This document shows, one piece after another, positions 47,404 through 64,000 of a stretch of 64,000 nt of DNA; the stretch's first letter is position 1, and every line of letters begins with the position of its first letter. Origin of the DNA: an uncultured delta proteobacterium (lineage in GTDB: Bacteria > Desulfobacterota > RBG-13-43-22); NCBI GenBank assembly GCA_963743305.1, contig CAVUPH010000032.1:32001-96000 (forward strand). The letters are read 5' to 3'. Under the pieces are notes generated by a model, which ran no database searches, was not told the origin of the DNA, and saw only the letters and a list, made by a program, of their open reading frames with translations. The translations under genes were made by a program, and so were the position numbers.

Positions 47404-48831
47404 TTACGCGCCATAGCGGTACCGGTAATCATCCGTCAGCACACAGCGTCGGACCCGGGTGAAGGTCCGGGGACGGGTCAGACCCTCCCCGCCGGTGGCC
47501 ACATGGAGGGACTTGAAACCCTCCCCGTCCACACCGATCCCGGCCACGGAGGCGCCGTTTTTCACCAGTTGTGAGGCGTCGGCCCGGCTGGCCAGGCGGG
47601 CCATATTGGCCAGGCTGTTGGAGTGAAAAACGATGGTGTGACGCATCCCCTGCTCCGCGGCAATCCCCAGGGTCAGGGCTTCTTCAAAGTCCCGGCAGCG
47701 GACCAGCGGCAGGATGGGCATGATCTGCTCCGTCCAGATGAGGGGGTGTTCGGCGTCGGTCTCCAGGATGGCGATCCGGGTCTCGGACGGAATGGTCAGT
47801 CCGATGGTCCGCTGGAGGATCTCGGCCACCGGCCGGCCGATATAGTCCATGTTGATGACGCTCTGGACCCTCCCGGGACGGATCTCCTTGAAGATCACCG
47901 GCACCAGGGCCCGCCCCTGTTCGGCGGTAAGTTCAAAGGCCCCGTGCTGTTTCAACCGCTCTTTGAGCCGGTCGGCGGCCGAGGCCACCACGAAGATCTC
48001 CTTTTCGCTGGAACAGGGGGTGCAGTTGCTCAACGAGGCGCCCCGAATGATGCAGCGGGCGGCCCGGTCCAGGTCGGCCGTCTCGTCCACGATGACCGGG
48101 GGATTGCCGGGTCCCCCGGAGATGACCCGTTTTCCGGTCTGGGCCGCAAATTCCACGACCCGGTGTCCGCCGGTAACCGCGATCATGTCCACCAGGGGAT
48201 GGGTCATCAGCATCTGGGCCGTGGGGATCGAGGGTTCCGCCACCGTGGTCAGGCAGTCCGGCGGGCCTCCGGCGGCGACGATGGCCCGATTCAGGTCCCG
48301 GACCACCCGGGCCGAGATCTCCTTGGTCTTGGGATGGGGGTTGAAAACAACAGAATTCCCGCCGGCCAGCATGAGGATGCTGTTGTGGAGGATGCCGGGG
48401 GCGGCGTTGGTGACGGCGTTGACCGAAGCGATGACCCCGACCGGAATCCTTTCCAGCAGCGTGGTCCCCCGATCGCCGCTGAACACTTCGGGGGCCAGAT
48501 CCTCCAGGCCGGGGGCCTGACAGGCCACCTCGATCTTCAACATGGTGCCTTCCACGGCCCCCAATTCGGCTTCGGCCAATTCGAGTTCGCCGTAGGTCCG
48601 CCGGTTGGCCAACCCCACCTGCCTGATGATTTGAATTATTTTTTCCCGCAGTTCCAGGGAAAGCCCGACCAGTGCCGCCTGGGCCTTGACCGCCGCCTGA
48701 ATGGCCTCTTCCATGGTCCCGTACACCCCCCAGGCGGTCTCCGCGGCTGAAGACGTCTGTCCCGAACCGGCGGCCGGGTTCATTTCCGACCAGATCAGGG
48801 AAACGATCCGTTCAATCTGATTTTTATCCAT
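47404..48831 (-). CDS. BMC-type CoA-acylating aldehyde dehydrogenase (EutE/PduP-like) with N-terminal encapsulation peptide
   Basis: EP-like DKNQIERIVSLIWSEM, GD.G.TL.E.IPVGVI, NPHP, VTGG, GPGNPP, C..EKE, EQIMP, HT, GEG. Confidence 0.88.
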   Translation of the reverse strand: MDKNQIERIVSLIWSEMNPAAGSGQTSSAAETAWGVYGTMEEAIQAAVKAQAALVGLSLELREKIIQIIRQVGLANRRTYGELELAEAELGAVEGTMLKIEVACQAPGLEDLAPEVFSGDRGTTLLERIPVGVIASVNAVTNAAPGILHNSILMLAGGNSVVFNPHPKTKEISARVVRDLNRAIVAAGGPPDCLTTVAEPSIPTAQMLMTHPLVDMIAVTGGHRVVEFAAQTGKRVISGGPGNPPVIVDETADLDRAARCIIRGASLSNCTPCSSEKEIFVVASAADRLKERLKQHGAFELTAEQGRALVPVIFKEIRPGRVQSVINMDYIGRPVAEILQRTIGLTIPSETRIAILETDAEHPLIWTEQIMPILPLVRCRDFEEALTLGIAAEQGMRHTIVFHSNSLANMARLASRADASQLVKNGASVAGIGVDGEGFKSLHVATGGEGLTRPRTFTRVRRCVLTDDYRYRYGA

Positions 48832-48867
48832 GGCTATTCCAGTCCCCAATTATCCGTTTGATCCGGC

Positions 48868-50322
48868 TCAAGCCGTAAGACCATAGCGGTAGCGAAAGTC
48901 ATCGGTCAGGACACAGCGCCGCACCAGGGTGAAGACCCGGGGCCGGGTGTGCCCTTCGCCGTTGGTGGCGATGTGAAAGGAGACGAACCCCTCCCCGGCG
49001 ACGCCGACGCTGGCCAGTCCGCAGGAGCCGTTTTTGACGAAGGCCGCGCACTTGGCGCGTGCGGCCATTTTTCGAATGGTCTCCAGGTTGTTGGAGTGGA
49101 TGGCCATGGTGTGGCCGTTGCCCTGTTCCGCGGCGATGGCCCGGTCGATGGCCTCCCCCGCGTCCCGGCAGCGAACCAGGGGGATGACCGGCATGATCTG
49201 CTCGGTCCAGACCAGGGGGTGATCGGGCCCCGTTTCCAGGATCACGATCTTGGCCTCCGGACCCACCGTCAGGCCGATGGCCTGGAGGATGAAGGAAGGT
49301 GGCTTGCCGATGTACTCCATGTTGATCACCCCCGGCCGGCCGGGCTCCCGGATTTCTTTGAAGATACGCGGGAGCAGTTCCTGCCCCTGCGGTACGGTGA
49401 TTTCATAGGCCCCGTACCGCTTCAACAGTTCCTTGAAGCGGTCGGCCACGGCGTCCACCACAAAAAGCTCCTTCTCGCTGGCGCAGGCCATGCAGTTCGA
49501 GAAGGAGGCCCCTTCGATCACACAGCGGGCGGCCCGGTCCAGATCGGCTGTTTCGTCGACCACCACCGGCGGGTTGCCGGGGCCGCCGGCGATCAGCCGC
49601 TTACCGGTCTGGGCGGCAAAAGCCACCACCCCGTGCCCGCCGGTGACGGCGATCAGCCGGATCAGGGGATGGGTCATGAGCTGCTGGGCCGAAGGCACCG
49701 AGGGTTCCTCCAGGCAACAGATGCAGTTGGCCGGCCCCCCGGCCTCCTGGATGGCCCGATTTAGGTCCCGCACCACCCGGGCCGCCACGTTCCTGGTCTT
49801 GGGGTGGGGGTTGTTGACCACCGTGTTTCCCCCGGCCAGCATCATGATGGCGTTGAACAGGATGGTGGGAGCACCGTTGGTCACCGGGTTCACCGAGGCG
49901 ATGACTCCCACCGGGATCCTTTCGATGATGGTTACACCCTTGTCTCCGGCGAAGACCTCCGGGATCAGGTCCTCCATCCCCAGGACCTCACAGGCGGAAA
50001 GATTTTTTTTGATATTGTCTTCCGCAGAACCTAAGCCGGTCTCCAAATATTCCATTTGCCCGTAGGTTTCGGCCCCGGTCCGCCCGACCCGGCGTATAAC
50101 CTGCAGGATTTCCTCCCGCTTCCGCAGCGGCAAGGCCATCAATTCTTTTTGCGCCCGGGCCGCCGCTTGAATACAGCTTTCAATGTCCGGAAAGACCCCG
50201 TCTCTTGCCGCCAAGGGGAACGATTCCGGAGCAGATTCTTCGGATACCTCGAACCCCTCGCTTTCCAGGCGACGAATGACCCGGGAAACGATCTGTTCAA
50301 GCCGCTCTTTAGCTAAAGCCAT
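48868..50322 (-). CDS. BMC-type CoA-acylating aldehyde dehydrogenase, second paralog, with encapsulation peptide
   Basis: EP-like KERLEQIVSRVIRRLE, DGVFPD, PVTN, GPGNPP, SFSNCMACASEKE, GHTMAIHS. Confidence 0.9.
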   Translation of the reverse strand: MALAKERLEQIVSRVIRRLESEGFEVSEESAPESFPLAARDGVFPDIESCIQAAARAQKELMALPLRKREEILQVIRRVGRTGAETYGQMEYLETGLGSAEDNIKKNLSACEVLGMEDLIPEVFAGDKGVTIIERIPVGVIASVNPVTNGAPTILFNAIMMLAGGNTVVNNPHPKTRNVAARVVRDLNRAIQEAGGPANCICCLEEPSVPSAQQLMTHPLIRLIAVTGGHGVVAFAAQTGKRLIAGGPGNPPVVVDETADLDRAARCVIEGASFSNCMACASEKELFVVDAVADRFKELLKRYGAYEITVPQGQELLPRIFKEIREPGRPGVINMEYIGKPPSFILQAIGLTVGPEAKIVILETGPDHPLVWTEQIMPVIPLVRCRDAGEAIDRAIAAEQGNGHTMAIHSNNLETIRKMAARAKCAAFVKNGSCGLASVGVAGEGFVSFHIATNGEGHTRPRVFTLVRRCVLTDDFRYRYGLTA

Positions 50323-50427: not shown

Positions 50428-51426
50428 CTAGTTTTTACCTAAACCGGGCTTACTTCTCTTCTTTTTATCCTCCCCCCGTGAGAAACCTTCCCCGGCAGAT
50501 AGCAGGGTATAATATTTCGCCTCCAGTGGGTTGCCGGTTATGGGGGAATCAGTATCCAGTGAATAAAAAACCGGCCGCTTTCTTATTCCATCCTCAATCT
50601 GGCTCAGACGTTTCAAGGTAGCCGTTTTGTCCACGAAGGCAATCTCGTGGATTAAAGCCCCCAACAGGGTCAGGATATGGGAAAAAGGATCTACAAAAGA
50701 CAATCCCTCCACATCCACGATGAGGTATTGGTCGGAAAGGGGAATAATCGGCGATTTGGGGGTATCGCTGATCCCAACGACAAAGGCACGACACTTTTTG
50801 GCGAATTCGATCAACTCGATGGCCTGATTGGCATAGCGGGGGAAAGCGAAGACCACTAGAAGCAGGGAAGAACCATGGAGGGCAATATGGTCGAAGTTCT
50901 CCCAGGAAAGCTGGGTATCCAGACGCACTCCCGGTCGGATCTTTTTCAGGAGAAAGCCAAAATAGGAAGCCAGAACGGAGGAAGCCCGGTAGCCGGCTAC
51001 GAGAACGCGTTCACTCCGGAAAATCTTGCGGGCCAGATTTTTAATTTCCTGTTCCGAAATGGAATGAATCATATGTTCCAGATTCCGCAGGGTGTTTTGA
51101 TGATAGGCCTTCATGGGAGTCAGATTGTCGGTCCGTTTGGTGGACTTCAACATACGCTCCACACTGGTCAATTCAATATGGAGCAGCCCCTTAACGTAGA
51201 CTTCAAATTCCTCATACCCGGAAAATCCGAGATCCAGAACAAAGCGAGTGACGGTAGGTTCGCTCACCCGGCATTCCCTAGCGATTTCTTTGGCTTTGAT
51301 CAAAAAAAGCTTTTTATAATCGTTGATGATGAAATCCGCGATCCGTTTCTTCTTAGGCGACAGTCCGGGATAAATATTGATGATGCGATCGAAGAGTTCT
51401 TTTTTTGCAGAATTGGTTTTCATCAA
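50428..51426 (-). CDS. MurR/RpiR family transcriptional regulator
   Basis: LSPKKKRIADFI..VSEPTVTRF..LGFSGY HTH, and SIS domain G.R.S, FPRY, ISD..SP. Confidence 0.9.
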   Translation of the reverse strand: MMKTNSAKKELFDRIINIYPGLSPKKKRIADFIINDYKKLFLIKAKEIARECRVSEPTVTRFVLDLGFSGYEEFEVYVKGLLHIELTSVERMLKSTKRTDNLTPMKAYHQNTLRNLEHMIHSISEQEIKNLARKIFRSERVLVAGYRASSVLASYFGFLLKKIRPGVRLDTQLSWENFDHIALHGSSLLLVVFAFPRYANQAIELIEFAKKCRAFVVGISDTPKSPIIPLSDQYLIVDVEGLSFVDPFSHILTLLGALIHEIAFVDKTATLKRLSQIEDGIRKRPVFYSLDTDSPITGNPLEAKYYTLLSAGEGFSRGEDKKKRSKPGLGKN

Positions 51427-51443
51427 AGATTCGGGGAAAAGGG

Positions 51444-52061
51444 TTAGTGGTCCCGACCCACCAAGGTGGCCAGAGCTTCCTCGGCGGCTGCCTTCGCGGC
51501 CTGAATGTTGGAGAGGGTTCCGGATAGATAGACCCGTCCGCTGGCTCCGAAGACGCTGGCATGAACCAGTTTGATATCCGCCGCCTTCTCCGCCTCATTG
51601 GCCGCGAATCCGGCATAGCCGGCCGGCACGACTTCAAGGATATACAGGGCGTCATCGGCCAAAATCATGTTGGCGTCCCGAAACCGGTTGACGATGGGGG
51701 TCATGAAAGGGTCGATCCGATCGATGGTTTCGGCCGCCAGTATCTTGGGCTTCAACCGGTCGGTCTCCTTCATTCCCAGATAATTCAAAACCACCTCCCC
51801 GGCTTCCCGGACATCGGCCGGAGAATCTCCGTGGACTTCCAGCATGCCATAGGTCCGTTCCACCACCATGGCCCCCGGTCGAACCTTGGCCTTTTTAAGC
51901 ACCACATCTGTCAGGGAATTGATCTCGATCCCCGGGGCAATTTCCAGAAAAAGACCCGATTGACCGGCGACCGGGTAGTAGCCTCGCGCCGTGCTGCTGA
52001 TGTAACCGACGAATTGCTTCTGCAGTTGATCAATAAAGGCAAAGGCTCGCAGTTCAATCAT
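51444..52061 (-). CDS. BMC-T shell protein, permuted stacked-trimer type
   Basis: IELRAFAFIDQLQ, LEIAPG, VVER.YG.LE.H, LE..PAGYA..AANEAEKAA, FGASGR.YL.G. Confidence 0.9.
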   Translation of the reverse strand: MIELRAFAFIDQLQKQFVGYISSTARGYYPVAGQSGLFLEIAPGIEINSLTDVVLKKAKVRPGAMVVERTYGMLEVHGDSPADVREAGEVVLNYLGMKETDRLKPKILAAETIDRIDPFMTPIVNRFRDANMILADDALYILEVVPAGYAGFAANEAEKAADIKLVHASVFGASGRVYLSGTLSNIQAAKAAAEEALATLVGRDH

Positions 52062-52071: not shown

Positions 52072-53277
52072 CTAGATGCTCTTTAACCATTCCCGCTTAT
52101 TCGGGCAGATGGCCGTGTTGATGGTGCAAGTGGCGTTTCCCTGGCAGGTACAGACGTGGTCGCCCCCCCGACTGAAGCGGCTGTAACAGAAATCGCTGAT
52201 CGGCTGCGCTACCCGGCAGTCCATGATCAAATCGGCGATCAGGCGGCCGATGGCCGGGGCCAGGCCAAAACCATGGCCGCTGAACCCCGCACAAAAAACA
52301 AATCCGGGGACTTCGCCGGTAAAACCGAGGATGGGGATACCATCCGACACTTGATCGATCAGCCCGGACCACACGCGAATGACCTGGACGTTTTTCAGGA
52401 TCGGGAAATAATCCAGGACCTGGCGGGAAATGGCCGGGCCGATGAAGTTGAACAGGGGCTTCCCGTCGCGGTAGATAAAATTCTCCGTTCCCACAAATCC
52501 CCCCCAGAAAAACGGTCCGTGAACGGTCTGGCGCCCGTAAAACAGCCCCCGGGCATGACCGATCATCTGCGGGAACAGCGGCGGGTAGGGTTCGGTAATC
52601 AAGGCCTCGGAAAACACCGGTTTCATGGGATAATCCAACCCCACCAGATTGGCGATCTTCCGACCCCCGATCCCGGCGGCATTGACGACCAGGTCCGTGT
52701 CGAAGACCTGTTTATCCGTTATAATTCGGGCGACCTTTCCCTTTTTCAACTTGAGGTCCACCACTTGCTCTTGGGTAAAGAATCGCGCCCCCAATCGCTT
52801 GGCTTTCAGAAAAAATCCGTAGGTCACCCGGAAGGGGTTGGCATGCCCGTCCGTCGGGCAATAACTGGCGCCAATCACTTTTTCCCCCACGTGGGGATTG
52901 ATGTCCAGGACTTGTTGTCGATCGAGCATCTCCAGCTCCAGGCCGGTCGTTCGTTGATTCTCCACTGACTTCCGCATCGTAGCCAGATCTTCCTCGGTGG
53001 TGCAGAGGCGCAGGTTTCCCTGGCGGACATATTCCACATCCATTTCCAGTTCTTCGTGAAGCTGGCCGTAGAGGCGGATGCTTTCCAGGGCCAGGGGCAT
53101 CTCTTTGAGATTACGGGCCGACTGCCGGACTCCGCCGCCATTGCTGCCCGAGGCCTCGCCCCCGATATCTCCCTTTTCGATGACCACGGGTTTGAGTCCC
53201 TCTTTGGCCAGATAGTAGGCCACGGCACATCCCATGACCCCTCCTCCCACAATCACTACATCGGCCGTATTCGCCAT
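52072..53277 (-). CDS. FAD-dependent amine/amino-acid dehydrogenase (DAO/SoxB/PdhB-like)
   Basis: VVIVGGGVMG, ASGSNGGGVR, DGHANP, RVWSG..DGIPILG, GFSGHGFGLAP and a Cys-rich C-terminal tail. Confidence 0.9.
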   Translation of the reverse strand: MANTADVVIVGGGVMGCAVAYYLAKEGLKPVVIEKGDIGGEASGSNGGGVRQSARNLKEMPLALESIRLYGQLHEELEMDVEYVRQGNLRLCTTEEDLATMRKSVENQRTTGLELEMLDRQQVLDINPHVGEKVIGASYCPTDGHANPFRVTYGFFLKAKRLGARFFTQEQVVDLKLKKGKVARIITDKQVFDTDLVVNAAGIGGRKIANLVGLDYPMKPVFSEALITEPYPPLFPQMIGHARGLFYGRQTVHGPFFWGGFVGTENFIYRDGKPLFNFIGPAISRQVLDYFPILKNVQVIRVWSGLIDQVSDGIPILGFTGEVPGFVFCAGFSGHGFGLAPAIGRLIADLIMDCRVAQPISDFCYSRFSRGGDHVCTCQGNATCTINTAICPNKREWLKSI

Positions 53278-53377
53278 AGTCTCTCCTGCCCTTGACACTC
53301 TCAACCCTTACTCATCCCGATCCACCCAGATCGGTCCGTGGCTTCCAAGATCCCTCTCCGATCCCTTTTCCGGTTTC

Positions 53378-54037
53378 TCAGCCGGTGGCAAAAACCGATA
53401 AAGGCAAGGGCCGGACCGGGGCCCGGGCGGTCATCGGCTCCAGTTCCGCCGGCGACCGGCCCAGTTCCTGGGCCAGGATCTGGGTGACCAACCGCTCACA
53501 GGTCTGTCCCTGGCACAACCCCATGCCGGCCCGGGTAATGCGTTTAATCCCGCTGACCGTTTGCATCCCGTTGCGGATGGCCTCCTTGATCTGGCCTCGA
53601 GTGATCTCCTCGCAGCGGCAAATCACCAAGTCGTCGTCAGCCGGGGCGGTCCCCGGGGCCTCCGGTTTCAGGCCCGATGCCCGGCCCTTCAGGGCTTTAA
53701 ACCGCTCGACGACCCGATCGACGATCCGTTCCAATTCTTCATCCTCGGAAACCGGGGGTGGAGCCGCAACGCCCACCCCAGTTCCAGCCTCGGCCGTCTC
53801 GGTTGCCGGACCGGTTTCACCCCGAGACGTTTCTCGGCCGGGTTTCGATTCCGACGTCGTGGGAAAGGCGTCCGGCGGCGTCTCCGCTTCGGGACGGTAA
53901 ACCACCTCGATCCCCTGCTCCTGGATTAGATCCTGGGCCGCGGCCGATATCCGGGCCCCCTCCCTTACGGCTAAGGTTTTATGCCCCTCCCGGACCAGGT
54001 CTTCGATATCTCGAGAAAAAATAAATTCAGGTCCCAT
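53378..54037 (-). CDS. BFD-like [2Fe-2S] domain protein (opine/sarcosine-oxidase-alpha-like) with internal encapsulation-peptide-like helix
   Basis: VICRCEEIT..IKRITRAGMGLCQGQTC..R.PVRP, preceded by a P/E/T-rich linker and EELERIVDRVVERF. Confidence 0.82.
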   Translation of the reverse strand: MGPEFIFSRDIEDLVREGHKTLAVREGARISAAAQDLIQEQGIEVVYRPEAETPPDAFPTTSESKPGRETSRGETGPATETAEAGTGVGVAAPPPVSEDEELERIVDRVVERFKALKGRASGLKPEAPGTAPADDDLVICRCEEITRGQIKEAIRNGMQTVSGIKRITRAGMGLCQGQTCERLVTQILAQELGRSPAELEPMTARAPVRPLPLSVFATG

Positions 54038-54047: not shown

Positions 54048-54666
54048 TTATTCTTTCCGACCGGTTAGACCGTTTAAGGTTTCCACCACTTTAGCGGCGG
54101 CCGCCAAAATTTCCGATTCGGTCCCGGCCAGATAGAGCCGACCGGCGGCCCCGAAAAAACTCAGGTCCACCAGGCGGACGTTACAGTGTTTTTCCGCTTC
54201 GTTGGCGGCAATCGAGGAATAAGCCGCCGGGGTAACTTCCAGCAGATAGACGTCGTTGCCCCCTAAGATGAGCATGCCCCGACTGTTCCGGTTGATGATG
54301 ACGGCCTGATAGGGATCGATCTTGTTGACAATACTGGTCGCCAGAATCTTCGGGGTCAGCCGGTCTTCTGGCTTCAGACCGATTTCATTAAGGATCATCT
54401 GCCCGGCATGGAGGATCTCTTCTTGATCGAAGGAATGGATTTCCAGCATGCCGTATCTTCTTTCCACGATCATCTCTCCCGGGCGGGCACTGGTCACCTT
54501 GAGGGCTATATCGGTCAACCGGTTGATTTCAATACCCGGCACGACCTCCACAAAGAGGGAAGACATGCCCTCCACCGGAAGAAATCCCCGGCAGCGACAG
54601 GCGAAATAGAGAGGCGAATTGAGGCTGAAGCCGATCAAGATGGCAGTAAGCACGTAGTTCCGGCAT
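54048..54666 (-). CDS. BMC-T shell protein, stacked-trimer type, second paralog (frameshift near 54610)
   Basis: MPELRAYCHLDRLQPQFAS joins RGFLPVEG..VEVVPGIEINRLTD..ANEAEK..FGAAGRLYL. Confidence 0.85.
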
Positions 54667-54678: not shown

Positions 54679-55300
54679 TTAGCTGTTAATCCTGTTTTCT
54701 TGAATGAAGTCTTTGGTGATACGACGGAAGGTCTCGGACAACTCCTGGGTCTGGCAAAAGACTACCCCCAAGCCCTCCAATTTTTTTAACAAGCGTTCCA
54801 TTTCCGTTTTGAGGGCCTCGTTGGCCAGGACCTCGCAGACCATAAATCCGTCCCTGGCGGCGAGAACCCGCTTGCCTTGCAGCAGGGCCGAAAAAACCAG
54901 GTCGGGAGTCCGGATCATCGGCCATCAGATGAGCCACTTTGGAGGCCACCATCAGGCATAAAGTGGGTAGCACGAGCACATCGGCGCGGGCCAATACCTT
55001 CTCCAGCCCCTCGGGTTTGACCGTATCCAGGATGCACGGCGCCCCTCCCTGCTCACGGACATCGGCCCCACAGACCCGAGAACGCACTGCGGGAACCGTA
55101 TACACCCCGGACCAGCCGGCCTGGGCTTCCAAGAGCGGCAATTGTTTCAGCGCCTCTTCCAGCCGCCGAATCCCGGCTTGGAAAACAATCAGCGCCCGGG
55201 GTCCCGGAGGGGCCGAAGAACGGACCCGCGGCCTCCCTTGTTCGCCCGATTCCAGCAGGACTTCCGCCACCAGTTTCCGAATCTCTTCTTTCGAGATCAT
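54679..55300 (-). CDS. BMC-associated flavoprotein-like protein with N-terminal encapsulation peptide (frameshift near 54910)
   Basis: EP-like MISKEEIRKLVAEVL, DVLVLPTL....SKVA, ALLQGKRVLAA.DG, L..LE.LGV. Confidence 0.7.
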
Positions 55301-55322
55301 GGTGTGAAAAACGTCTCCCTCA

Positions 55323-56171
55323 TCACGAGGCCTGTGCCCAGGCAACGGATTGGCCTTTCTCTCCTAGACAGGAAAGGGCGATCCCGTAGGGCGTTACGAC
55401 CTGGGGGACTTGAGGTTTAAAGACCTCCAGACCGAGATTCTGGGCGACCAATTCCGTTAAGCCACCCAACTCGCAGGTTCCCCCCACCAAACAAACCCTG
55501 GGGATGCCCTCGAACCCTTCCAAGGCTTTTCGAATAATGGCCGAAACCTTTTCAATCACCGGACGAACAACGGGGAGGATCTCCGGATGACGGGAAGGGT
55601 CGATTTTGATCCTTTCGGCTTCCTCAAAGCTGATCCGCAGGTGACCGGACAGGACCAGGGAAAGATGAACCCCTCCGGTGGCTTCATCACTGGTCCGGAT
55701 AATCCGGCCGTCTCGAATCAGGGCTATCCCCGTGGTTCCCCCGCCGATATCCACCAGGGCCCCATCTTGGAGGTTGAGAAAACGGTTGGCCGCCGTGGGT
55801 TCGTCCAGGACCCGGACAACTTCCAACCCGGCTCCCTGCAGGATATAGCGGGTGGTATGCACATTGCCGGATTCCGTCTGCGGGGGAAAGGAGGTAGCCC
55901 CCTGATCGATGGGCAGCGAAGAGCGGCTTCGGATTTCTTCCATTATCGCCTTCAACAGGGTGAGGGTCCCGAAGTAATCAATAATCAGACCGCTGCCTAT
56001 TCCTTCGGAGCGCCGCATAGCCGCCGCCCTGGGCCGTCCCTGTTCATCCACTACAATCACCTTACTCTTGTAGGTTCCCAGGTCCACCCCGGCAAACAAT
56101 TCCCGGGCCCCGGAGAAATCCCAAGTTTCCGGCCGATTCATGATCCGACGAATGGTCTTGAGGGCTGTCAT
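55323..56171 (-). CDS. eutJ: EutJ-like Hsp70/actin-fold BMC protein
   Basis: GVDLGT, G.IIDY.G, VLDEPTAA, VDIGGGTTG, DEATGG.H, EEAE..K, LVGGT, TP.GIA. Confidence 0.9.
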   Translation of the reverse strand: MTALKTIRRIMNRPETWDFSGARELFAGVDLGTYKSKVIVVDEQGRPRAAAMRRSEGIGSGLIIDYFGTLTLLKAIMEEIRSRSSLPIDQGATSFPPQTESGNVHTTRYILQGAGLEVVRVLDEPTAANRFLNLQDGALVDIGGGTTGIALIRDGRIIRTSDEATGGVHLSLVLSGHLRISFEEAERIKIDPSRHPEILPVVRPVIEKVSAIIRKALEGFEGIPRVCLVGGTCELGGLTELVAQNLGLEVFKPQVPQVVTPYGIALSCLGEKGQSVAWAQAS

Positions 56172-56723
56172 CAGATTAAATTGGGATAAAGCTCCCGACT
56201 CAGGGAAGGGATCACCACATGGCTTTGAATCAACCCTTCATCGGTCAGGGCCGCTAAACCGGCGTCTACCGCCGCCTGGACGGAACCGACATCTCCGGTT
56301 AAGGAAACATAGGATTTTCCGGCCAGACCCGTGGCACAGCGGATCTCGATAATCTCCACCGCCGCCGCCTTAACTGCCGCATCGGCCGCCAGGATGCAGG
56401 AGGACGCCGAATAGGTTTCAATGATCCCCAGGGCGCCAATGTTCAGGATCTGGGTGGCGCAACTGAGGGCCGGAAAAATACTCGGGTGGACATTGGGGAT
56501 CGTAAAGGAGTCGACCAGAAACTCCCCGGCGATTTCCCGGCCCACGTCCACCGCAGTTCTGCACCGAACCGACGTCGCCGGCGATCAGGGCCAAATAGCG
56601 CCCGGGGCAGACCGGCCGGGCCATGATCAGCTCGACGCTGGCCGCTTTGATCATCTCATCGGCGCAGTGGACCCCTTTGGCCACGCTGTTCAGTTCGATC
56701 AGCCCAATCGCTTTGTATGCCAT
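56171..56723 (-). CDS. PduT-like BMC-T shell protein (frameshift near 56557)
   Basis: AIGLIELNSVAKG..ADEMIKAA..VCPGRY..GDVGSV, with second domain ALGIIETYS..AADAAVKAA..GDVGSV..VIPS. Confidence 0.88.
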
Positions 56724-56727
56724 GACC

Positions 56728-58077
56728 CTACCTCTTCTCCCGTTGGATAACGACCTGCCCGTCCACCGAAACCACCCGACCGGCCAGACTGGCATGGATC
56801 CGGGCACCCAGGGCCTTCTCCGGTATCTCTCCCAGCAGATCCCCCTGGTTGACCCGATCACCGGCTTGGACGACGGGCCGGGCCGGCGCCCCTAAATGCT
56901 GTTTCAAGGGGATGGCCACCCGATCCGCCCGGATTTCCCGGGAATCGAAACGGGGATGACGGTCGTATTTCTTGATTTGAAGACGTTCCATCAGCCGCTG
57001 CGTCGGGATCCTTCTCCCCTCGCGAAAGGCCGAGGGCCGGTAGTCCTCCCGAACGGTAGGCCGCTTCACCCCTTGGGCCAGCAGTTCCCGTTTGATCTGG
57101 GCGTTGACCTCCCGCGGGGAGATCATCATGGGGCAGGCGTATTTTTCGCAGACCCCGCATTCCGAACAGATCAGGGCGTCTTTTTGGATCTCTTGAGCCG
57201 CCGGGGAGGTGGACCCCAGTTGCCGCATGATTTTATGGGGGTTCAGGGAATGTCCCAGCAAATAGCGAGGGCACATGTCGGTGCAGCGGGAGCATTGGCA
57301 GCAGGCCAAACGGGTAATATTCCGTAGACGGGCCGGATCCTTGATCTTATCCACGACCACCGGATGATCCGGAGCCAGGACTAAAAGGCCGCTGGTGGTC
57401 TTGCCGACCGGCGTCGCCAGATCCGAGACCACCTGGCCCATCATGGGCCCTCCCAGAACGACCCGAAATTCCCCGAGCACGGGCCCCCCCCGCCAACCCG
57501 ATCACCTCTCCGACCGACAGGCCGATGGGGACCTTCAGGATCAGAGGTTCCGCCACCTCTCCCCCGACGGTTAGATACCTTTCGAGTAACCGGGCGGCCT
57601 TCCTCCACGGCTTGGTCGATATTCAGGAGGGTTTCCACGTTGCTGACCACGGCCCCCACCTGCAGGGGCAGACCCCCCTTCCGGGACCACCCGCCCCATG
57701 ACCTCGTACACCAGGACCTGCTCATCCCCGGCCGGGTAGAAATCCGCCAGTTCAAAAAGATCGATCTTTTTGTAAGGCCCCCGCCCGACCTTATCCCGCA
57801 GGACGGCCAGGGCCTTTTGATGTTTTCCCTTTAGACACAGGGTTCCTTGAGGGGCCCCGGTGCATTCCATGACCCGCAGGAGACCCCGGAGGATCCGATC
57901 GGCTTCCTGCTCCAGCAGATAGGGATCACTCATCAGCAGCGGTTCGCAGGAAGCCCCGTTGGCCAGGACCCGCTCCACCCTGGCCTTCAATTTGACGTGG
58001 GTCGGGAAGCCGGCCCCCCCGGCCCCGACCACCCCGGCTTCCTGCACCCGGCTGATGATCTCCTGGCTCGTCATCAC
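56728..58077 (-). CDS. PduS/RnfC-like flavo-Fe-S protein (several frameshifts in 57480-57680)
   Basis: AGVVGAGGAGFPTHVK, NGASCEPLL, YPAGDEQ, GGPMMG, CCQCSRCTDMCP, CSECGVCEKYACP, LKQHLGAP. Confidence 0.88.
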
Positions 58078-58087: not shown

Positions 58088-58363
58088 CTAAGTTCCGCTC
58101 AGATCCAAGCTGTCCACAATCCCCACCACCACCGCGTCCACGGGGATTAATTTCTCCTGGTCGAAGGCCTGCATGGCCGGACTGCCCTGGGTGATGATGA
58201 CCAGTTCTCCCACCCCCGCTCCGATTTCATCGGCCGCCACCAGGACGTCGCCGGCCGGGGTCAATTTCTTGCCCAACGGCTGGACAAAGAGCAGCCGCAA
58301 CGCGTGGATCTTTTCATTTTTTTTGGTCGACCAGACGTTCCCCATCACCTTGGCAATTTTCAT
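58088..58363 (-). CDS. BMC-P pentamer (EutN/CcmL family)
   Basis: M.IAKV.GNVWST.K, VAADEIGAGVGELV, GS.A, PVDA.VVGIVD. Confidence 0.95.
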   Translation of the reverse strand: MKIAKVMGNVWSTKKNEKIHALRLLFVQPLGKKLTPAGDVLVAADEIGAGVGELVIITQGSPAMQAFDQEKLIPVDAVVVGIVDSLDLSGT

Positions 58364-58449: not shown

Positions 58450-58755
58450 TCATCCCAGTCCTTCCCGGGCCTGAATGGCCTCCAGGCTGGTTTTGACCGC
58501 CGCAATATCCCCGAAGATCCCGATCATGGTCAAGTGCTGGGGACAGCTTCCTTTGAGGTCAAAGACATGAACGGCAGCGGCCTTTTCGGCAATGTCCGCG
58601 GCCGCCACCATATCCACCAACCGCCCTTGAACCAATCCCACGGCGCTGAAGTTGATGATCTCCAGCGTCTTCTTGCCGGTGGAACCCATCCGGGTCATTA
58701 AGATATCGATGACCCCCGGTCCGGGGTGGGTAATGAACTGAATATTCAGCGCCAT
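58450..58755 (-). CDS. GrpU-like BMC-H shell protein (Fe-S pore motif)
   Basis: AVGLVQG..AADIAEKAA..GSCPQH...IFGD.AAV matches the GxCPQ motif. Confidence 0.8.
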   Translation of the reverse strand: MALNIQFITHPGPGVIDILMTRMGSTGKKTLEIINFSAVGLVQGRLVDMVAAADIAEKAAAVHVFDLKGSCPQHLTMIGIFGDIAAVKTSLEAIQAREGLG

Positions 58756-58890: not shown

Positions 58891-59172
58891 TTATTTTTCG
58901 GCCTTGGGGAGAATGAACTCGATATCCCCGTGGGGTCTGGGGATAACGTGGACCGACAGGAGCTCGCCCACCCTTTTGGCCGCCGCCCCGCCGGCATCGG
59001 TAGCGGCTTTGACCGCGCCCACATCCCCCCGGACAAAAATCGTCACCAAACCGCCGCCGGCATGCTCTTTTCCCACCATCTTGACGTTGGCCGCTTTCAC
59101 CATGGCATCGGCCGCCTCAATGGCACCGACCAATCCCCGGGTTTCCACCATACCTAATGCTTGTTCACCCAT
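58891..59172 (-). CDS. BMC-H hexamer (EutM/PduA-like)
   Basis: [46 protein letters not shown]. Confidence 0.97.
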
Positions 59173-59197: not shown

Positions 59198-59701
59198 TTA
59201 TCGTTTCAATCGAATCGCCCTGGCCTTCATGGACCAGGCACGAGGTACTTCAATGGTTACCACGGCGGTTTGATCCATCCGCTCCGTCTTACGGACCGCG
59301 GTGGCCGGAGCCTCTCCTAAAACGGCCCCGGACCGATCCAAAACCACCACCAGCTCCCCCTTTTCCGGGAGCGGCAGAAACTCATGGGGCAGGGTCACCG
59401 CCGCCTTATCATCCGGCAGGCTTTCATCGACGATGAAAATGGCCTGACCCGGACAAATGGGCACGCAGGACTGACAGCCAATGCATTTATCTTCATCCAG
59501 GTGCGGGAGGTTGGTAATATCCCTCCCCACCGAGATGGCTTCGACCCGGCAACTGGCCTCGCAGGGGTTGCAGGGAATATGTTCGGTGCACTCGATCACG
59601 GCCACCGGCCCCCGCCGCCGCCGGGCTTCGGTAGGGATACCGGGACTGTCCCTTAATTCTTCTTCCGATAGAAAGCCTGTTTGCGATAATCCTGGGGCCA
59701 T
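59198..59701 (-). CDS. 4Fe-4S dicluster ferredoxin-like subunit
   Basis: C...IPCNPCEASC and CIGCQSCVPICPG, with C-terminal LPHEFLPLP domain. Confidence 0.85.
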   Translation of the reverse strand: MAPGLSQTGFLSEEELRDSPGIPTEARRRRGPVAVIECTEHIPCNPCEASCRVEAISVGRDITNLPHLDEDKCIGCQSCVPICPGQAIFIVDESLPDDKAAVTLPHEFLPLPEKGELVVVLDRSGAVLGEAPATAVRKTERMDQTAVVTIEVPRAWSMKARAIRLKR

Positions 59702-59706: not shown

Positions 59707-60795
59707 TTACCTTTCCATCAGGGCGTAAAGTTGTTCCTTGTTCTGCCGGCGAGCTTCGCCATAGGGTCCGCTGCGCAAACCGGACATGCTTTCCAACTGC
59801 TCCGCCCGCTGGTGTTCAAAGGCGTCGGTATCCAAGTATCCCAGGCTGTGGGCCGCGGCCAATCCGGCAATGCGCCCCTCAATAATCGCCGTGCTGGCTT
59901 CCTCAATTCCGGAGACATCCCCCGCCACGTAAATCCCCGGAAGGGAAGTTTGCTGGTCGAGATCATGGATCGGCACATTCCCTCCCAAAGCGGAAAGCGA
60001 GGCCATTTTACAGCCGGCCATCCGCAAAAGCTGGGTCATCGGGTTGAGGCCCACGGCAATGCAGATGGTATCCACTTCCAGTTCCTTTTCCGTTCCGGCA
60101 ACGGGTTGCCACTTGGAATCGACCTCAACGATCGTAGCCCCGATCACTCGGTCACTCCCCCGGGCCTCCTTGATGGTATGGGACAGGAAAAAAGGGACCC
60201 CGTAGCGGGCCACCTTGGCCGCGTGGACCCCATACCCGGAAATCCGAGGGGCGGCGTCGATGACTGCGGCTATCTGGCATCCGGCTTGAAGCAGTTGAAA
60301 ACTGACCACGACCCCCACATTGCCGGAACCCACCATGAGAATGTTGTTCCCCGGCCGAACGCCATGAAGGTTGGCCATGGTCTGGGCCGCGCCGGCTCCG
60401 ATTACCCCGGGAAGGGTCCACCCAGGGAAAGGGATCATATTTTCCGAAGCGCCGGTGGCCACCAGAACCCGCTCCGCCTTGACCTCTTCAATCCGGTCCT
60501 GAATCATGACATTCATGGTCCGGTTCTCATAAATCCCCAGGACCACTGCCTTCAGAAGGACTTCCACGCCAAGTTGGCGGGCCTCGTCCAACAGGCTTTG
60601 GCCGATATGAAATCCCCGTTCCTGGGCGCGGTGTTCTTTGGAACCGAAAAACTTATGGATCTGTTTAAAGAGCTGGCCGCCCGGCCGTTCGTTTTCATCA
60701 AAAACCACCACTTCGACCCCGCAGCGGGCCGCCTCGATCGCGGCGGAAAGGCCGGCCGGTCCCGCCCCAATACAAACCAGTTCGCATCGTCTCAT
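59707..60795 (-). CDS. FAD/NAD(P)-dependent oxidoreductase subunit (sarcosine oxidase alpha / HcnB / PdhA-like)
   Basis: IGAGPAGLSAA, PGGQLFKQIHKFFG, ATGASE..FPGWTLPGV, VGSGNVG, YVAGD. ATG 60795 overlaps the upstream TGA. Confidence 0.9.
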   Translation of the reverse strand: MRRCELVCIGAGPAGLSAAIEAARCGVEVVVFDENERPGGQLFKQIHKFFGSKEHRAQERGFHIGQSLLDEARQLGVEVLLKAVVLGIYENRTMNVMIQDRIEEVKAERVLVATGASENMIPFPGWTLPGVIGAGAAQTMANLHGVRPGNNILMVGSGNVGVVVSFQLLQAGCQIAAVIDAAPRISGYGVHAAKVARYGVPFFLSHTIKEARGSDRVIGATIVEVDSKWQPVAGTEKELEVDTICIAVGLNPMTQLLRMAGCKMASLSALGGNVPIHDLDQQTSLPGIYVAGDVSGIEEASTAIIEGRIAGLAAAHSLGYLDTDAFEHQRAEQLESMSGLRSGPYGEARRQNKEQLYALMER

Positions 60796-61115
60796 TTTTT
60801 CCCCGCCGGCGGCTCCGGTCCATGGCCGTGCTGCGTTTGGATTGACATACCCGCTTGAAGCGGTTCCACACAGGTCCGCACGTTGGGCCTTCCATCCACG
60901 ACCATGATGCAGTCGGTGCATCGGCCAATGGCACAAAACATCCCCCGGGGTTCTTTTCGTTTCGCCGTGTAACGGTGGATGATAACCCCGTTGCTCCGGA
61001 GGGCCATGGCGATGGGTTCCCCCGCGAAACCCTCCATCGGTTGTTGATCAAAGGTAAACCGGACCTTTTCACCCTTTTCAAAAGTCCCCAGAATGGGATG
61101 GTCCTCGATGCGCAT
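60792..61115 (-). CDS. (2Fe-2S)-binding subunit (HcnA/PdhF-like)
   Basis: HPIL, GEPIAMAL, PRGMFCAIGRCTDCIMVVDG.PNVRTC. Confidence 0.9.
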   Translation of the reverse strand: MRIEDHPILGTFEKGEKVRFTFDQQPMEGFAGEPIAMALRSNGVIIHRYTAKRKEPRGMFCAIGRCTDCIMVVDGRPNVRTCVEPLQAGMSIQTQHGHGPEPPAGKK

Positions 61116-61259: not shown

Positions 61260-62583
61260 CTAACAAAATCCGAACATTTCCGTAAAAGTGAAGTTGGTCC
61301 CCACCAGGGGTATCCCGGTCATGGCGCAGGCCTCCAGAGTCAGGGAGCGGATGTCTTCCCGTTCCAGATTGGCCAGCTTGGTCTTCCCGGCGGCCTTGGC
61401 CAGGAGAACGGTCTCGTAAGTCATGGCCTGAATATAGTTGGCCACCCGTTGCGCCGCCGCCTCGATGTCCAGGTTCTTTCGCAATTCCGGGTCCTGGGTT
61501 CCGATCCCCCAGGGGCATTTTCCCTCGTGGCAGCGGAGGCAGACCACGCAGCCCATGGCGATCATGGCCCCGGTTCCGATGGCCACGGCATCGGCGCCGA
61601 TGGCCAAGGCCTTGGCTACATCGGCCCCGTCTTTGATCCCGCCGGAGACGATCAGACTCACCTCATCTTTGACGCCCATCTCCTCCAGGGCCCGGACGGC
61701 CTGGACCAGGGCCGGCAGGGTGGGGATCCCCAGGTGTTTGGAAGCCATGACCGGGGCGGCCCCGGTGCCGCCTTCGGAACCGTCGATGACGACGCCGTCG
61801 GCGCCGGTCTTGACGGCGATCTTGACGTCTTCCTTAACCCGGCCGGCGGCCATCTTGATGAAGATGGGGATCTGATAGTCGGTCACGTCCCGCAGTTCCT
61901 GGATCTTCAAGACCATATCGTCGGCCCCGAAAATATCCCCATGGCGGGGATGACTGTGCAGGTCAATACCTTCCGGCAACTGCCGGAATTGCGCAATTTC
62001 CTTGGTGATTTTACTGCCCATCAGGTGTCCGGAAAGACCGGGTTTGGCGCCGATGCCGGTGATCAGCTCCAGGGCATCAGCGGCCTCGATGTTGGTCAGG
62101 GAAAAGCCCATCCGGCTGGGGGTGATCTGCACCACCTGTTTATAGGAATTCGCTCGTTCTTCGGGAAGCAACCCGCCTTCTCCATTGTTGATCGAGGTCC
62201 CCACGATCTGGGTGGACTTGGCCAGAGCGATTTTGGCCTCTTTGCTCAAGGCCCCATAAGACATGCCGGAAATCATGATCGGCGTTTCAATGACCAGGGG
62301 TTTTTTGGCGAAGCGAGCCCCCAGGACCGTCCGGGTCTGGCAGTCCTCCCGGTAGGTGTCCACCGACAAACGGGAGAGCTGGGCCGCCAGGATGAGCAGG
62401 TCGTCGAAATTGGGATAGCGGGCTGGTGGAACCACATCCCCGTATCCGGTGCTTACCCGTATAGGCCTTGTATTTGACCTCGGCCACCGTTTCCGCATTC
62501 CAGACCCCGCGCTGGACATCCTTGGCCTTGGGCACCTTCCCTTTTTCCTCCTGGTATTGCTTATATTCTTTTTCCTCGGACAT
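61260..62583 (-). CDS. FMN-binding glutamate synthase-like subunit (GlxD/MgsC-like or archaeal-type GltS), frameshift near 62420
   Basis: FDDL, SGMSYGALS, GEGG, GAKPG..GHL, DGSEGGTGA, SGGI, C..CHEGKCPWGI.TQDPEL. The N-terminus MSEEK.. is in the adjacent frame. Confidence 0.87.
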
Positions 62584-62585
62584 GG

Positions 62586-63290
62586 CTACCTCCCCGGCTG
62601 AACCTGAAGATGTTGGGGTTTGAAGAGGTAATATTCGTGGCGGCCCAGGACCTTCGGAACCACACTCCGGAAGTGGTCCACCCCCTGCTCCAGACCATAC
62701 TGCTTGAAAAGGCCTTCCAGCGCCTTTTTTTCTTCATCGGAAATGGGGATGATCGAGGCGTTTCCGCCCAGTTTGTCTTCCACCGCGGGGTCCAGGGTGT
62801 GAATGATGCCGTTGTACATGGACTCCCCAATAACCGGCCCCATTTCCCCGAGGACGATGATCCGTCCCCCCAGGGTCATGTATCCGGTCCACCGGCCCAC
62901 ACTGCCGCAAATGATGAGGTTGCCGCCTTTCATCCCCAGGCCGGCCCGGGTGCCGCTGTTTCCTTTGACCAGGATGGTACCCCCGAGCATGGAAGGGCCG
63001 CAGTTGCTGCCGGTGTTCATCTCGACGATGATCTCCCCGGCCTTCATGTTGTCACCGGTGTACCAGCCGGTATTCCCCTTGACGTGCAGGGTCGGACCTT
63101 CCAGGAACCCACCGGTGTAGAAACCGGTGCTGCCCTCGACGGTGACGGTGCCTTCCCCTTTTAAGGCTGTAGCGAAATTGTGGACCGAGTGGGAATTCTT
63201 GATAACGATTTCCCGGTCCTGCTTAATGGTTTCCCTCAGTTTTCGGTTTACATCCCAACTGGTCATCCCGGCAATGTCTAAATTGACCAT
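62586..63290 (-). CDS. GXGXG beta-helix subunit (GlxC/MgsB/GltB domain 3-like)
   Basis: Repeated V.G..G..G..M.GG turns. Confidence 0.87.
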   Translation of the reverse strand: MVNLDIAGMTSWDVNRKLRETIKQDREIVIKNSHSVHNFATALKGEGTVTVEGSTGFYTGGFLEGPTLHVKGNTGWYTGDNMKAGEIIVEMNTGSNCGPSMLGGTILVKGNSGTRAGLGMKGGNLIICGSVGRWTGYMTLGGRIIVLGEMGPVIGESMYNGIIHTLDPAVEDKLGGNASIIPISDEEKKALEGLFKQYGLEQGVDHFRSVVPKVLGRHEYYLFKPQHLQVQPGR

Positions 63291-64000
63291 ACCTTTACTC
63301 CTCCTGGCTCCATCTCGGTGGCATACACATCCGAGACGATCGGGGTTAAGCAGATTTGCTCCGACCCAAATAGTACGGTCCCGTCTTCCCTTTCAAAGTA
63401 GAGCACCGGTTTAAAACCCAACCAATCCCGAAAGGCCCCTATCTGTTTATCCGTGCTGGCCAGGATGGTGAACACCCCGTCAAAGGCCTCCAGGGCCTGG
63501 TGCATGGCCCCTTCCAGGTCCTGTCCTTTTTCTTTCATCTGGTACGCGAGATACTGGGCCGCCAGCTCGGAGTCATTATTGGTCTTGAAGCGGACCCCCT
63601 TATTTTCCAGACTCCGCCGCATCTTGAAATAGTTGGTAAACTGGCCGTTATGGACTATAGCCAATTCCGGATAGAGGTAGGAGATAAAAGGATGGGCGAA
63701 GTTGATGTTTTCCACCGTCTCGGTAGCCAGGCGCACATGCCCGATACCGTGGGTGCAGGTTCCTACGCGGATCTCATGGGTGCGCTGCAGGTCTTCGGCC
63801 GAACCCTGGTCTTTGTAGACCTTCAAGTGTTGGCCCAGGGAGTGCACACATAATTGGGGATGACTGTCTATGTCCCAATGGAGCCGGCCGATCTGGGAAG
63901 GATCCATGTCGATGGATCCTTCATAAAAGCTGAAGATCCCCTCGCCATGGTAGCTGCGGGCCTTACGGACTTTGCCGAACATGGCGATGATCTCCTCCAG
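63278..64000 (-). CDS. Class II glutamine amidotransferase-like subunit (GlxB/MgsA-like), 5' end outside window
   Basis: GIGHVRLATE, AHPF, VHNGQ..NY, NDSE, DG.F, RD.LG.KP. Confidence 0.87.
   Translation of the reverse strand: MEEIIAMFGKVRKARSYHGEGIFSFYEGSIDMDPSQIGRLHWDIDSHPQLCVHSLGQHLKVYKDQGSAEDLQRTHEIRVGTCTHGIGHVRLATETVENINFAHPFISYLYPELAIVHNGQFTNYFKMRRSLENKGVRFKTNNDSELAAQYLAYQMKEKGQDLEGAMHQALEAFDGVFTILASTDKQIGAFRDWLGFKPVLYFEREDGTVLFGSEQICLTPIVSDVYATEMEPGGVKVWSI

Follow-up and report, generated by a model that had tools for sequence, protein, structure and literature searches.

A microcompartment locus of Desulfobacterota linking a glutamine-synthetase-like ligase and a glutamate-synthase-like trio to a flavin/iron-sulfur dehydrogenase: a candidate amine-oxidizing metabolosome

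The 64,000-nucleotide stretch of DNA analyzed here (the window) comprises bases 32001-96000 of contig C32 of an uncultured Desulfobacterota genome (4.9 Mb in 43 contigs). Since the genome is 90% complete with 5.7% contamination, it is probably a metagenome-assembled genome (MAG). A minus-strand gene run at the right end of the window encodes bacterial microcompartment (BMC) shell proteins and acylating aldehyde dehydrogenases, interleaved with a glutamate-synthase-like trio and the subunits of a flavin/iron-sulfur (Fe-S) dehydrogenase. We see an even chance that the locus encodes a metabolosome whose aldehyde-producing step is catalyzed by a flavin/Fe-S amine dehydrogenase, and not by a lyase, dehydratase, radical enzyme or aldolase.

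The minus-strand open reading frames (ORFs) from 44 kb to 64 kb of the window were scanned against Pfam and NCBIfam, as was a stretch of 18 kb spanning the right edge. Every gene named in a first-pass annotation, which had been made by a model from the letters of this DNA, was found on the minus strand, and the run extends past the bounds given there, from a glutamine synthetase (GS)-like gene down to a RidA gene at 44053. The GS-like gene, a putative gamma-glutamyl ligase (Gln-synt_C, 4e-102), lies outside the window at window-equivalent 64243-65583; a GlnA- or GmaS-like gene had been expected beyond 64 kb. The trio follows. It consists of an MgsA-like class-II N-terminal-nucleophile glutamine amidotransferase (63278-64000, the full gene reaching 64177 and encoding 299 aa; GATase_6 and GATase_7), an MgsB-like GXGXG subunit (62586-63290; PF01493, 3.7e-22) and an MgsC-like flavin mononucleotide (FMN) subunit of the Glu_synthase family (61260-62519; PF01645, 2e-106).

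Five modules compose the dehydrogenase. Three stand together directly after the trio: a gamma-like 2Fe-2S subunit (Fer2_4, 60792-61115; PF13510, 4e-28), an alpha-N subunit binding FAD/NAD (Pyr_redox_2, 59707-60795; PF07992, 2e-37) and a 4Fe-4S ferredoxin-like subunit (59198-59701; Fer4 families). The alpha-C subunit with BFD and SO_alpha_A3 domains (53378-54037; PF04324 and PF17806) and the catalytic beta subunit of the DAO family (52072-53304; PF01266, 6e-75) are found among the shell genes.

All three shell classes, BMC-H, BMC-T and BMC-P, are present as matches to PF00936 and PF03319, and the BMC-domain matches of the whole genome are confined to this one locus. A BMC-H protein (58891-59172; PF00936, 1.4e-28) is followed by a GrpU-like permuted BMC-H of 101 aa (58450-58755; PDB entries 4olo, 5e-22, and 4olp, 2e-14), a BMC-P vertex protein of the EutN/CcmL type (58088-58363; PF03319, 7e-29), a PduS-like Fe-S flavoprotein (56728-58077; Complex1_51K, Fer4_17 and RnfC_N) and a PduT-like tandem BMC-T (56171-56861), whose intact copy in the related locus L002 matches 3nwg at 6e-55 and PduT (3n79) at 2e-43. 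Next come an EutJ-like actin-fold chaperone (55323-56171; NF011660, 287 bits against a cut-off of 182), an accessory protein without family assignment (54686-55345; about 267 aa in other loci) and two CcmP-like BMC-T proteins, at 54048-54653 and 51444-52061, which score 216 and 234 bits with NF053796, under its cut-off of 340. An RpiR/SIS regulator (50428-51426; HTH_6 and SIS) lies within the operon in nearly all loci. Two acylating aldehyde dehydrogenases of the EutE/PduP type, the first at 48868-50322 and its paralogue at 47404-48849, both score above the PRK15398 cut-off (502 and 506 bits against 403), and the paralogue occurs in about half of the loci. An APC-family amino acid/amine permease (45831-47432; AA_permease), a C45 hydrolase and a RidA-family imine deaminase (44053-44496; PF01042, 3e-25), the last found downstream in most loci, close the run.

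Several of these genes are frameshifted in this assembly. Compared with intact genes in L002, L004 and L010, the PduS gene contains three 1-base insertions within about 200 bases, and the PduT-like gene contains one 1-base insertion relative to its intact L002 copy. In the FMN gene, the reading frame of roughly the first 30 codons (62400-62519) departs from that in eight other loci, and two Liv ABC genes elsewhere in the window (9623-12158) are split or frameshifted relative to intact homologues. These frameshifts are probably assembly indel errors, true decay of this gene copy being the other conceivable source.

Neither ethanolamine lyase, diol dehydratase, glycyl-radical enzyme nor aldolase was detected in the 64-kb window or in the 16 kb past its right edge, where 27 ORFs of the locus, 16 beyond the edge and 37 in the rest of the window were scanned. 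The absence of a classical signature enzyme that the first-pass annotation had reported for the window therefore extends past the edge. To our knowledge, all characterized metabolosomes generate their aldehyde by a lyase, dehydratase, glycyl-radical enzyme, aldolase or phospholyase. The metabolosome core is also incomplete, since the genome, at 90% completeness, has no match to PduL (PF06130), and Pfam scans of the locus and of the right-edge stretch revealed no alcohol dehydrogenase; hence the label "incomplete core".

The linkage of trio and dehydrogenase genes with shell genes is conserved, as the first-pass reading would have it. A first scan, with one genome per species and the window's DAO protein as query, yielded 12 loci, and a second scan, for which seven aligned DAO proteins served as query, yielded 80, of which 20 are Desulfobacterota loci with shell genes (four of them on contigs already seen in the first scan). 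Thus, 28 distinct shell-linked contigs are known besides the window, from Desulfobacterales, Desulfatiglandales, Desulfococcaceae, Syntrophobacteraceae, Desulfarculia and an Olavius symbiont. Since tblastn with the window's proteins gives the same gene order throughout these 28 contigs, the arrangement is far beyond chance. The FMN gene was seen in 8 of the 12 and 13 of the 20 loci; in the others, L099 excepted, the end of the contig or the 10-kb limit on the flanks cuts the locus short. Aldehyde dehydrogenase 1 was seen in 10 of the 12 and 15 of the 20. A separate scan with the GS-like protein gave eight Desulfobacterota loci, in which, wherever the contig is long enough, the ligase gene stands immediately ahead of trio and shell genes. 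Because L019 shares a contig with L011, and L014 with L101, the full span from ligase to DAO gene is documented there as well as in the window.

A variant of the locus was observed in Desulfobacula (L099, 7040-13500), which keeps only the BFD, DAO, BMC-T, RpiR, RidA and class-I amidotransferase genes; upstream, a pterin-binding methyltransferase-like gene and an MscS channel stand in place of the shell genes.

To place the ligase, a FastTree phylogeny was built from 76 rows after those below 85% coverage had been dropped; its supports are local only, and long branches were flagged. The tree splits in three: 32 rows are true glutamine synthetases, 28 form a GmaS-like group associated with clusters of the trio with the folate-binding GCV_T domain, and 16 make up the well-supported group of the window. 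The last contains other Desulfobacterota, the shell-less locus L018, Chloroflexi and two long-branched rows, one from Neobacillus and one from a Streptomyces locus that also encodes a permease along with a class-I amidotransferase and an aldehyde dehydrogenase. In the alignment, true glutamine synthetases carry an FDGSS motif and a VPGYEAP flap; in the window's group an 11-residue insertion replaces FDGSS and Phe replaces the flap Glu, and the GmaS-like rows show at loop and flap a motif pattern that differs from both other groups. Comparison with solved structures does not separate the candidates, archaeal/Bacillus-type synthetases (1e-70) and GmaS entries (1e-64) being matched about equally, and the scores with TIGR03105 (328 bits, cut-off 470) and with the NCBIfam gamma-glutamylputrescine synthetase model (265 bits) are both under the cut-offs. 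An identification of the ligase as GmaS is not borne out, since it falls in a separate clade.

The trio appears to be of the MgsABC type, to judge from its class-II amidotransferase with a retained Cys-1 (the protein starts Met-Cys), its GXGXG protein and its FMN subunit, which is about 50% identical to folate-type trio subunits. In a quick IQ-TREE phylogeny of the FMN subunit (40 rows, rows below 70% coverage dropped), the shell-linked rows, including two from contigs that end before the shell genes, form one group (support 96), the Chloroflexi rows a second (99) and those of folate type a third (88). The branch that leads to the genome's own GltS is very long and places it far from the trio subunits. 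Since the genome possesses separate GlnA and GltS on contig C10 (32% and 30% identical to the locus ligase and FMN subunit) and the FMN subunit clusters with N-methylglutamate-type trios, an ordinary split glutamate synthase, which the first-pass annotation had held out as an alternative, is disfavored. The Cys motif of the FMN subunit was considered as a separator between glutamate synthases and Mgs-type proteins and was dropped, as it is conserved in all groups.

The subunit make-up of the dehydrogenase points to the heterooligomeric L-proline, opine and D-hydroxyproline dehydrogenase (L-ProDH/OpnDH/D-HypDH) family, which passages of PMC4575208 describe as acting on secondary amines and as composed of a DAO beta, a Pyr_redox plus BFD/A3 alpha and a Fer2_4 gamma subunit; archaeal L-proline and D-hydroxyproline dehydrogenases, flavin-containing opine dehydrogenases and hydrogen cyanide synthase share this composition. 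The best solved relative of the DAO subunit is the beta subunit of Pyrococcus horikoshii proline dehydrogenase (PDH1; 1y56_B, 1e-52), with SoxB more distant (2e-32), so that an MgdA/SoxB-like character of this subunit is not supported. The Pyr_redox_2 protein matches the N-terminal half of SoxA (residues 130-446) at 2e-18 and PDH1 alpha at 5e-12, and for the BFD protein the sole match is to the C-terminal end of PDH1 alpha (residues 410-491, 2e-8). The two genes can therefore be regarded as a split alpha chain. The locus differs from the known heterooligomeric enzymes in this division of alpha into two genes, in a targeting-type extension on the C-terminal piece, in a separate 4Fe-4S subunit (fused to the DAO subunit in Chloroflexi and in L018) and in its ligase, trio and shell partners.

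Comparison with the N-methylglutamate pathway (GmaS, MgsABC and MgdABCD) reveals a parallel set of a GS-like ligase, a trio and a DAO-based multi-subunit dehydrogenase. The canonical clusters, found in 18 loci (mostly Acidobacteriota, some Chloroflexota and one Nitrososphaerota), contain the trio, a SoxA-like alpha with SO_alpha_A3 and GCV_T, a DAO protein and a GS-like ligase. The GCV_T folate-binding domain is present in all 18, whereas it is absent from every shell-linked and every folate-free ligase/trio locus. Extra Fe-S modules, the split alpha chain, the position amid shell genes and an anaerobic host further distinguish the locus, and all three enzyme sets fall in clades of their own. 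For the DAO subunit, a FastTree phylogeny of 32 rows gives a clean split into shell-linked (12), folate-free shell-less (3) and folate-type (17) rows.

Sequence features of several enzymes suggest that they are carried inside the shell. A conserved amphipathic helix followed by a variable linker is the usual appearance of encapsulation peptides. Among the 10-11 loci compared, both aldehyde dehydrogenases and the accessory protein begin with a conserved amphipathic N-terminal helix and then a poorly conserved linker. The BFD subunit shows a conserved 45-residue N-terminal domain, a variable linker and a similar helix ahead of its BFD/A3 domain. In the shell-less homologues, BFD/A3 is fused to Pyr_redox and therefore lacks this extension. 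We regard these four helices as putative encapsulation peptides. The L010 copy of the accessory protein matches TIGR02536 ("eut_hyp") at 3e-14, under the cut-off, and the 45-residue domain shows only a weak likeness to the N-termini of EutT and EutQ (E 0.02-0.05).

The redox proteins of the shell offer a clue to electron flow. Aligned to 3nwg, the PduT-like protein retains the pore Cys of its PVCPG motif, and the GrpU-like protein, aligned to 4olo/4olp, keeps its GSCPQ motif. A PduS gene is present without any B12 enzyme in the locus. Taken together with the missing alcohol dehydrogenase and PduL, these features suggest that reducing equivalents exit as electrons. The co-occurrence of GrpU-like, PduT-like and PduS-like genes is shared with glycyl-radical-enzyme microcompartments ("redox-replete" shells), in which, unlike here, a glycyl radical enzyme and its activase stand beside the shell genes; in the locus described, electrons would go out, not in.

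From these components we propose, with a probability of roughly 0.5, that an amine is converted via a gamma-glutamyl amide into an N-substituted glutamate, from which an aldehyde is released inside the shell and trapped as acyl-coenzyme A (acyl-CoA). A primary amine would be imported by the APC permease here, and by TRAP transporters in most relatives. The GS-like ligase would then join it, at the expense of ATP, to the gamma-carboxyl of glutamate. The trio would act as an N-methylglutamate synthase does: the Cys-1 amidotransferase would free the amine from the amide and the FMN subunit would fix it on the 2-oxoglutarate skeleton, giving an N-substituted glutamate. This secondary amine would enter the shell, where the five-module dehydrogenase (DAO, Pyr_redox_2, BFD/A3, Fer2_4 and Fer4) may oxidize the N-C bond on the substituent side. 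Since the dehydrogenase has no folate-binding domain, the resulting imine would hydrolyze, perhaps aided by RidA, to free aldehyde and glutamate. The encapsulated acylating aldehyde dehydrogenases would turn the aldehyde into acyl-CoA, and the electrons of the flavin and of NADH would leave via PduS and the PduT-like and GrpU-like Fe-S-type shell proteins.

This scheme is supported by the fact that it gives all conserved enzymes a use. It retains the general outline of the first-pass proposal, from amine through N-alkyl-glutamate to an in-shell aldehyde and acyl-CoA, whereas a GmaS identity of the ligase, a SoxB-like DAO subunit and methylamine, with formaldehyde as its product, as the main substrate are not supported. 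It would likewise explain why the loss of the folate domain goes along with aldehyde handling, in the form of a shell and acylating dehydrogenases here and of an aldehyde:ferredoxin oxidoreductase in L018. In that locus (1966-8688), a ligase 60% identical to the window's is followed by two fused dehydrogenase genes, the oxidoreductase and a Liv ABC system; no trio was found in the L018 stretch examined.

Other relatives without a shell bear on the substrate of the dehydrogenase. Five folate-free Chloroflexi loci combine the ligase and an APC permease with the trio, Fer2_4 and two fused genes, Pyr_redox+BFD/A3 and DAO+4Fe-4S; two Chloroflexi loci, L024 and L026, were seen to hold two consecutive copies of the amidotransferase/GXGXG/FMN trio each. 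Among the 60 non-shell loci of the second scan, eight (Anaeromicropila, Desulfosporosinus, other Bacillota and a Desulfovibrionaceae MAG) have the trio genes, six of these also with a GS-like ligase, followed by Fer2_4, Pyr_redox, Fer4, BFD, DAO and RidA in the window's order. An ornithine-cyclodeaminase/mu-crystallin gene is found in 41 of the 60 (Pfam-confirmed in the four examined), and the remaining 11 have neither this gene nor ligase and trio within the stretch fetched. These 60 loci (L113-L173) show the five-gene dehydrogenase cluster (Fer2_4, Pyr_redox, Fer4, BFD and DAO) to be widespread in gut Firmicutes and Collinsella.

The frequency of the cyclodeaminase gene, which might supply proline, brings up the alternative that survives best, unlikely as it seems to us: the substrate would be proline or another cyclic imino acid, and the complex an L-/D-proline, hydroxyproline or pipecolate dehydrogenase. 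The shell would confine a pyrroline-carboxylate/semialdehyde pair for oxidation by the aldehyde dehydrogenases, with ligase and trio left to deal with nitrogen or glutamate only. The closeness of the DAO subunit to PDH1 beta, the exclusive match of the BFD piece to PDH1 alpha and transporters of amino-acid type all agree with this. However, the cyclodeaminase-family gene is absent from all eight trio loci and from every shell-linked locus. Because the two gene sets never co-occur, ligase and trio seem to occupy the slot of the enzyme making the secondary amine (proline) for the same dehydrogenase. The N-substituted-glutamate scheme explains this replacement, while a proline substrate leaves the tight cross-phylum linkage of ligase and trio unexplained and fits poorly with a ligase devoid of the ammonia-site motifs. 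Moreover, we know of no precedent for the acylating oxidation of glutamate semialdehyde.

Transporters and companion genes narrow the candidates for the amine. In 12 of the 20 loci listed, the operon is immediately followed, on the same strand, by TRAP DctPQM genes; in L108 and L111 these genes lie within the operon and separate the regulator gene from that of the aldehyde dehydrogenase. An APC permease takes their place in the window and in L002, and a Liv ABC system in L003; APC permeases are also carried by the Chloroflexi and Firmicutes shell-less modules. TRAP binding proteins mostly recognize carboxylates or sulfonates, with exceptions. The TRAP binding protein was tried as a guide to the substrate and set aside, its best solved relative being lactate-binding and too distant (1e-23). 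RidA, a PuuD-like class-I amidotransferase and an Amidohydro_3 protein are frequent companions, the amidotransferase lying inside or beside the operon in at least eight loci and divergent from the ligase here. Some loci carry outer-membrane proteins, either Phenol_MetA_deg or DUF1302 with DUF1329. These transporter types and companions suggest an amino-acid-like amine, or one set free from an amide, more than they suggest free methylamine. An amine also bearing a carboxylate, e.g. an omega-amino or diamino acid, is favored, and methylamine or ethylamine is less likely. One may speculate that, with a diamino acid whose side chain supplied the amine, the route would pass through a saccharopine-like intermediate to an amino-acid semialdehyde.

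The same companions recall the Puu pathway and the actinobacterial GlnA2-4 routes, and this leads to a second alternative, slightly less probable than proline. Here a di- or polyamine would be gamma-glutamylated on one nitrogen and its other end oxidized in the shell to a gamma-glutamyl amino-aldehyde, the dehydrogenase serving as an anaerobic stand-in for PuuB; the aldehyde dehydrogenase would oxidize the aldehyde and the PuuD-like amidotransferase would remove the glutamyl group. A GS-like ligase, a DAO-family enzyme, an aldehyde dehydrogenase and a class-I amidotransferase of Peptidase_C26 type are indeed all present, the amidotransferase recurs as described above, the ligase is of the same broad subfamily, with the Streptomyces locus in its clade, and the 265-bit score of the gamma-glutamylputrescine synthetase model agrees in kind, if under the cut-off. 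Nevertheless, the Puu and GlnA2-4 routes have no trio, Fe-S dehydrogenase or shell, and in such a route the always-present trio would be without a role. TRAP transporters are not typical for polyamines. Secondary amines are the substrates for which the dehydrogenase family is known, as far as the passages of PMC4575208 go.

Methylamine specifically, the substrate put forward in the first-pass annotation, is a sub-case of the N-substituted-glutamate scheme, in which N-methylglutamate would release free formaldehyde in the shell for conversion to formyl-CoA; we consider it improbable, and marginally more so than a Puu-like route. In its favor, there is the parallel between the gene set and GmaS, MgsABC and Mgd, a shell would be justified by the formaldehyde set free once the folate domain is lost, and the variant L099 has its pterin-binding methyltransferase-like gene upstream. 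On the other side, the ligase, FMN and DAO subunits each fall outside the clades tied to folate-type clusters, the shell-less relatives would face free formaldehyde, and the locus is accompanied by TRAP, APC or Liv transporters and not by ammonium/methylammonium-type carriers. By far the weakest alternative is that ligase and trio form an ordinary GS/glutamate synthase couple for ammonia assimilation that merely neighbors an amino-acid dehydrogenase microcompartment: the domain content equals that of a split glutamate synthase and the Cys cluster motif of the FMN subunit is kept, but the separate GlnA and GltS on C10, the remoteness of that GltS in the FMN tree, the loss of FDGSS and the flap Glu from the ligase and a linkage with the dehydrogenase that holds across four phyla make it very improbable.

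Several observations weigh against the N-substituted-glutamate scheme itself. The side on which the N-C bond is oxidized and the release of an aldehyde by the dehydrogenase are presumed, the DAO subunit is closest to archaeal L-proline dehydrogenase, and the ligase falls outside the GmaS-like clade. L099 and L105 reach far enough and yet have no aldehyde dehydrogenase nearby, L105 having unrelated genes after its last BMC-T. The shell-less relatives would release the same aldehyde unprotected, the class-I amidotransferase and Amidohydro_3 companions have no role in the scheme, and the frameshifts described above affect several genes of the locus in this assembly. RidA enzymes are best known for acting on 2-imino acids. 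Furthermore, the characterized relative that takes an N-substituted glutamate as substrate, the flavin-containing opine dehydrogenase, cleaves nopaline, as passages of PMC4575208 have it, on the glutamate side to 2-oxoglutarate and arginine, and no aldehyde is formed.

The locus appears to belong to a catalogued type. Passages of Sutter et al. 2021 (PMC8217296) list MIC2-7 as being of unknown function with no obvious signature enzyme, MIC6 standing for "metabolosome with incomplete core 6". Supplementary file 4 of that catalogue names the models HMM01266_1_mic6 (DAO, PF01266) and HMM04324_1_mic6 (Fer2_BFD, PF04324), and supplementary file 3 gives, for a Desulfobacteraceae MAG, a GrpU-like shell protein of type MIC6 that is 99 aa long. 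From these mic6 labels and the 101-aa GrpU homologue of the window we infer that the locus is of type MIC6, a judgement made by model and protein labels. MIC6 also shares with the locus an aldehyde dehydrogenase without PduL or alcohol dehydrogenase. They differ in that the trio families PF01645 and PF01493 have no hits in the catalogue's text files, where the sole Gln-synt_C model is labelled mic2. No accession link from the GrpU-like protein to the MIC6 entry was found among its 265 homologue clusters, by a look-up of ten NCBI-sourced matches. The first-pass annotation had regarded assignment to an already characterized BMC type as damaging to its proposal; the type seems to be catalogued, but only as of unknown function.

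The shell, the aldehyde dehydrogenases and the locus type are thus of already known kinds. New relative to the literature searched are the proposed signature chemistry and the linkage of a ligase and trio to a microcompartment, neither of which was found in print: no paper was found that connects a microcompartment with glutamate synthase, sarcosine oxidase, gamma-glutamyl or N-methylglutamate chemistry, or that deals with MIC6 or with methylamine in sulfate reducers. Candidate papers name microcompartments or gmaS just in passing or among their references.

Around the locus, further genes were noted. Past the ligase, beyond the right edge and on the opposite strand, lie the Peptidase_C26-type class-I amidotransferase, Usp, a PAS-LuxR regulator, glutamate dehydrogenase, Amidohydro_3 and a Liv-type ABC system. 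On the other side, DUF1302 and DUF1329 outer-membrane-type genes follow the locus (40908-43762), as they do in L109 (15823-19101), a Syntrophobacteraceae MAG; this set may be an uptake system for the substrate. The segment 37662-43762 also encodes a BNR protein and another protein, of 593 aa, that belongs to no family. Nitrogen-related genes form a second small cluster (32383-36967), which consists of an amidase, a gene without assignment, an APC permease and a second RidA. Two large genes for multihaem cytochromes c are located at 26421-32221, with Rieske and cytochrome b genes after them. Farther away, a set of genes at 1490-18255 looks like an island for nitrogen-compound catabolism: it encodes an M24 peptidase of the creatinase/prolidase type, an amidohydrolase resembling adenine deaminase, a PAS kinase together with a sigma-54 regulator, a molybdoenzyme of the xanthine dehydrogenase family, a Liv ABC system and a further Amidohydro_3 protein.

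If the N-substituted-glutamate scheme is correct, a dehydrogenase-type signature enzyme fed by a gamma-glutamyl/N-alkylglutamate route would be a chemistry new to metabolosomes, and the catalogued orphan type MIC6 would gain a function. Somewhat more tentatively, at a little under even odds, the locus may define a functional class new for metabolosomes, which combines formation of an N-substituted glutamate in the cytoplasm, folate-free oxidation within the shell, trapping of the aldehyde as acyl-CoA and export of electrons via Fe-S shell proteins. It would offer a natural case of such electron export, and sulfate reducers would possess an oxygen-independent amine oxidation. The shell-less sister modules of gut Firmicutes and Chloroflexi are likewise uncharacterized. 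For the Desulfobacterota of sediments, groundwater and a gutless-worm symbiont, the scheme would imply an overlooked amine oxidation, which would bear on the question of which organisms consume amines in sulfate-reducing zones.

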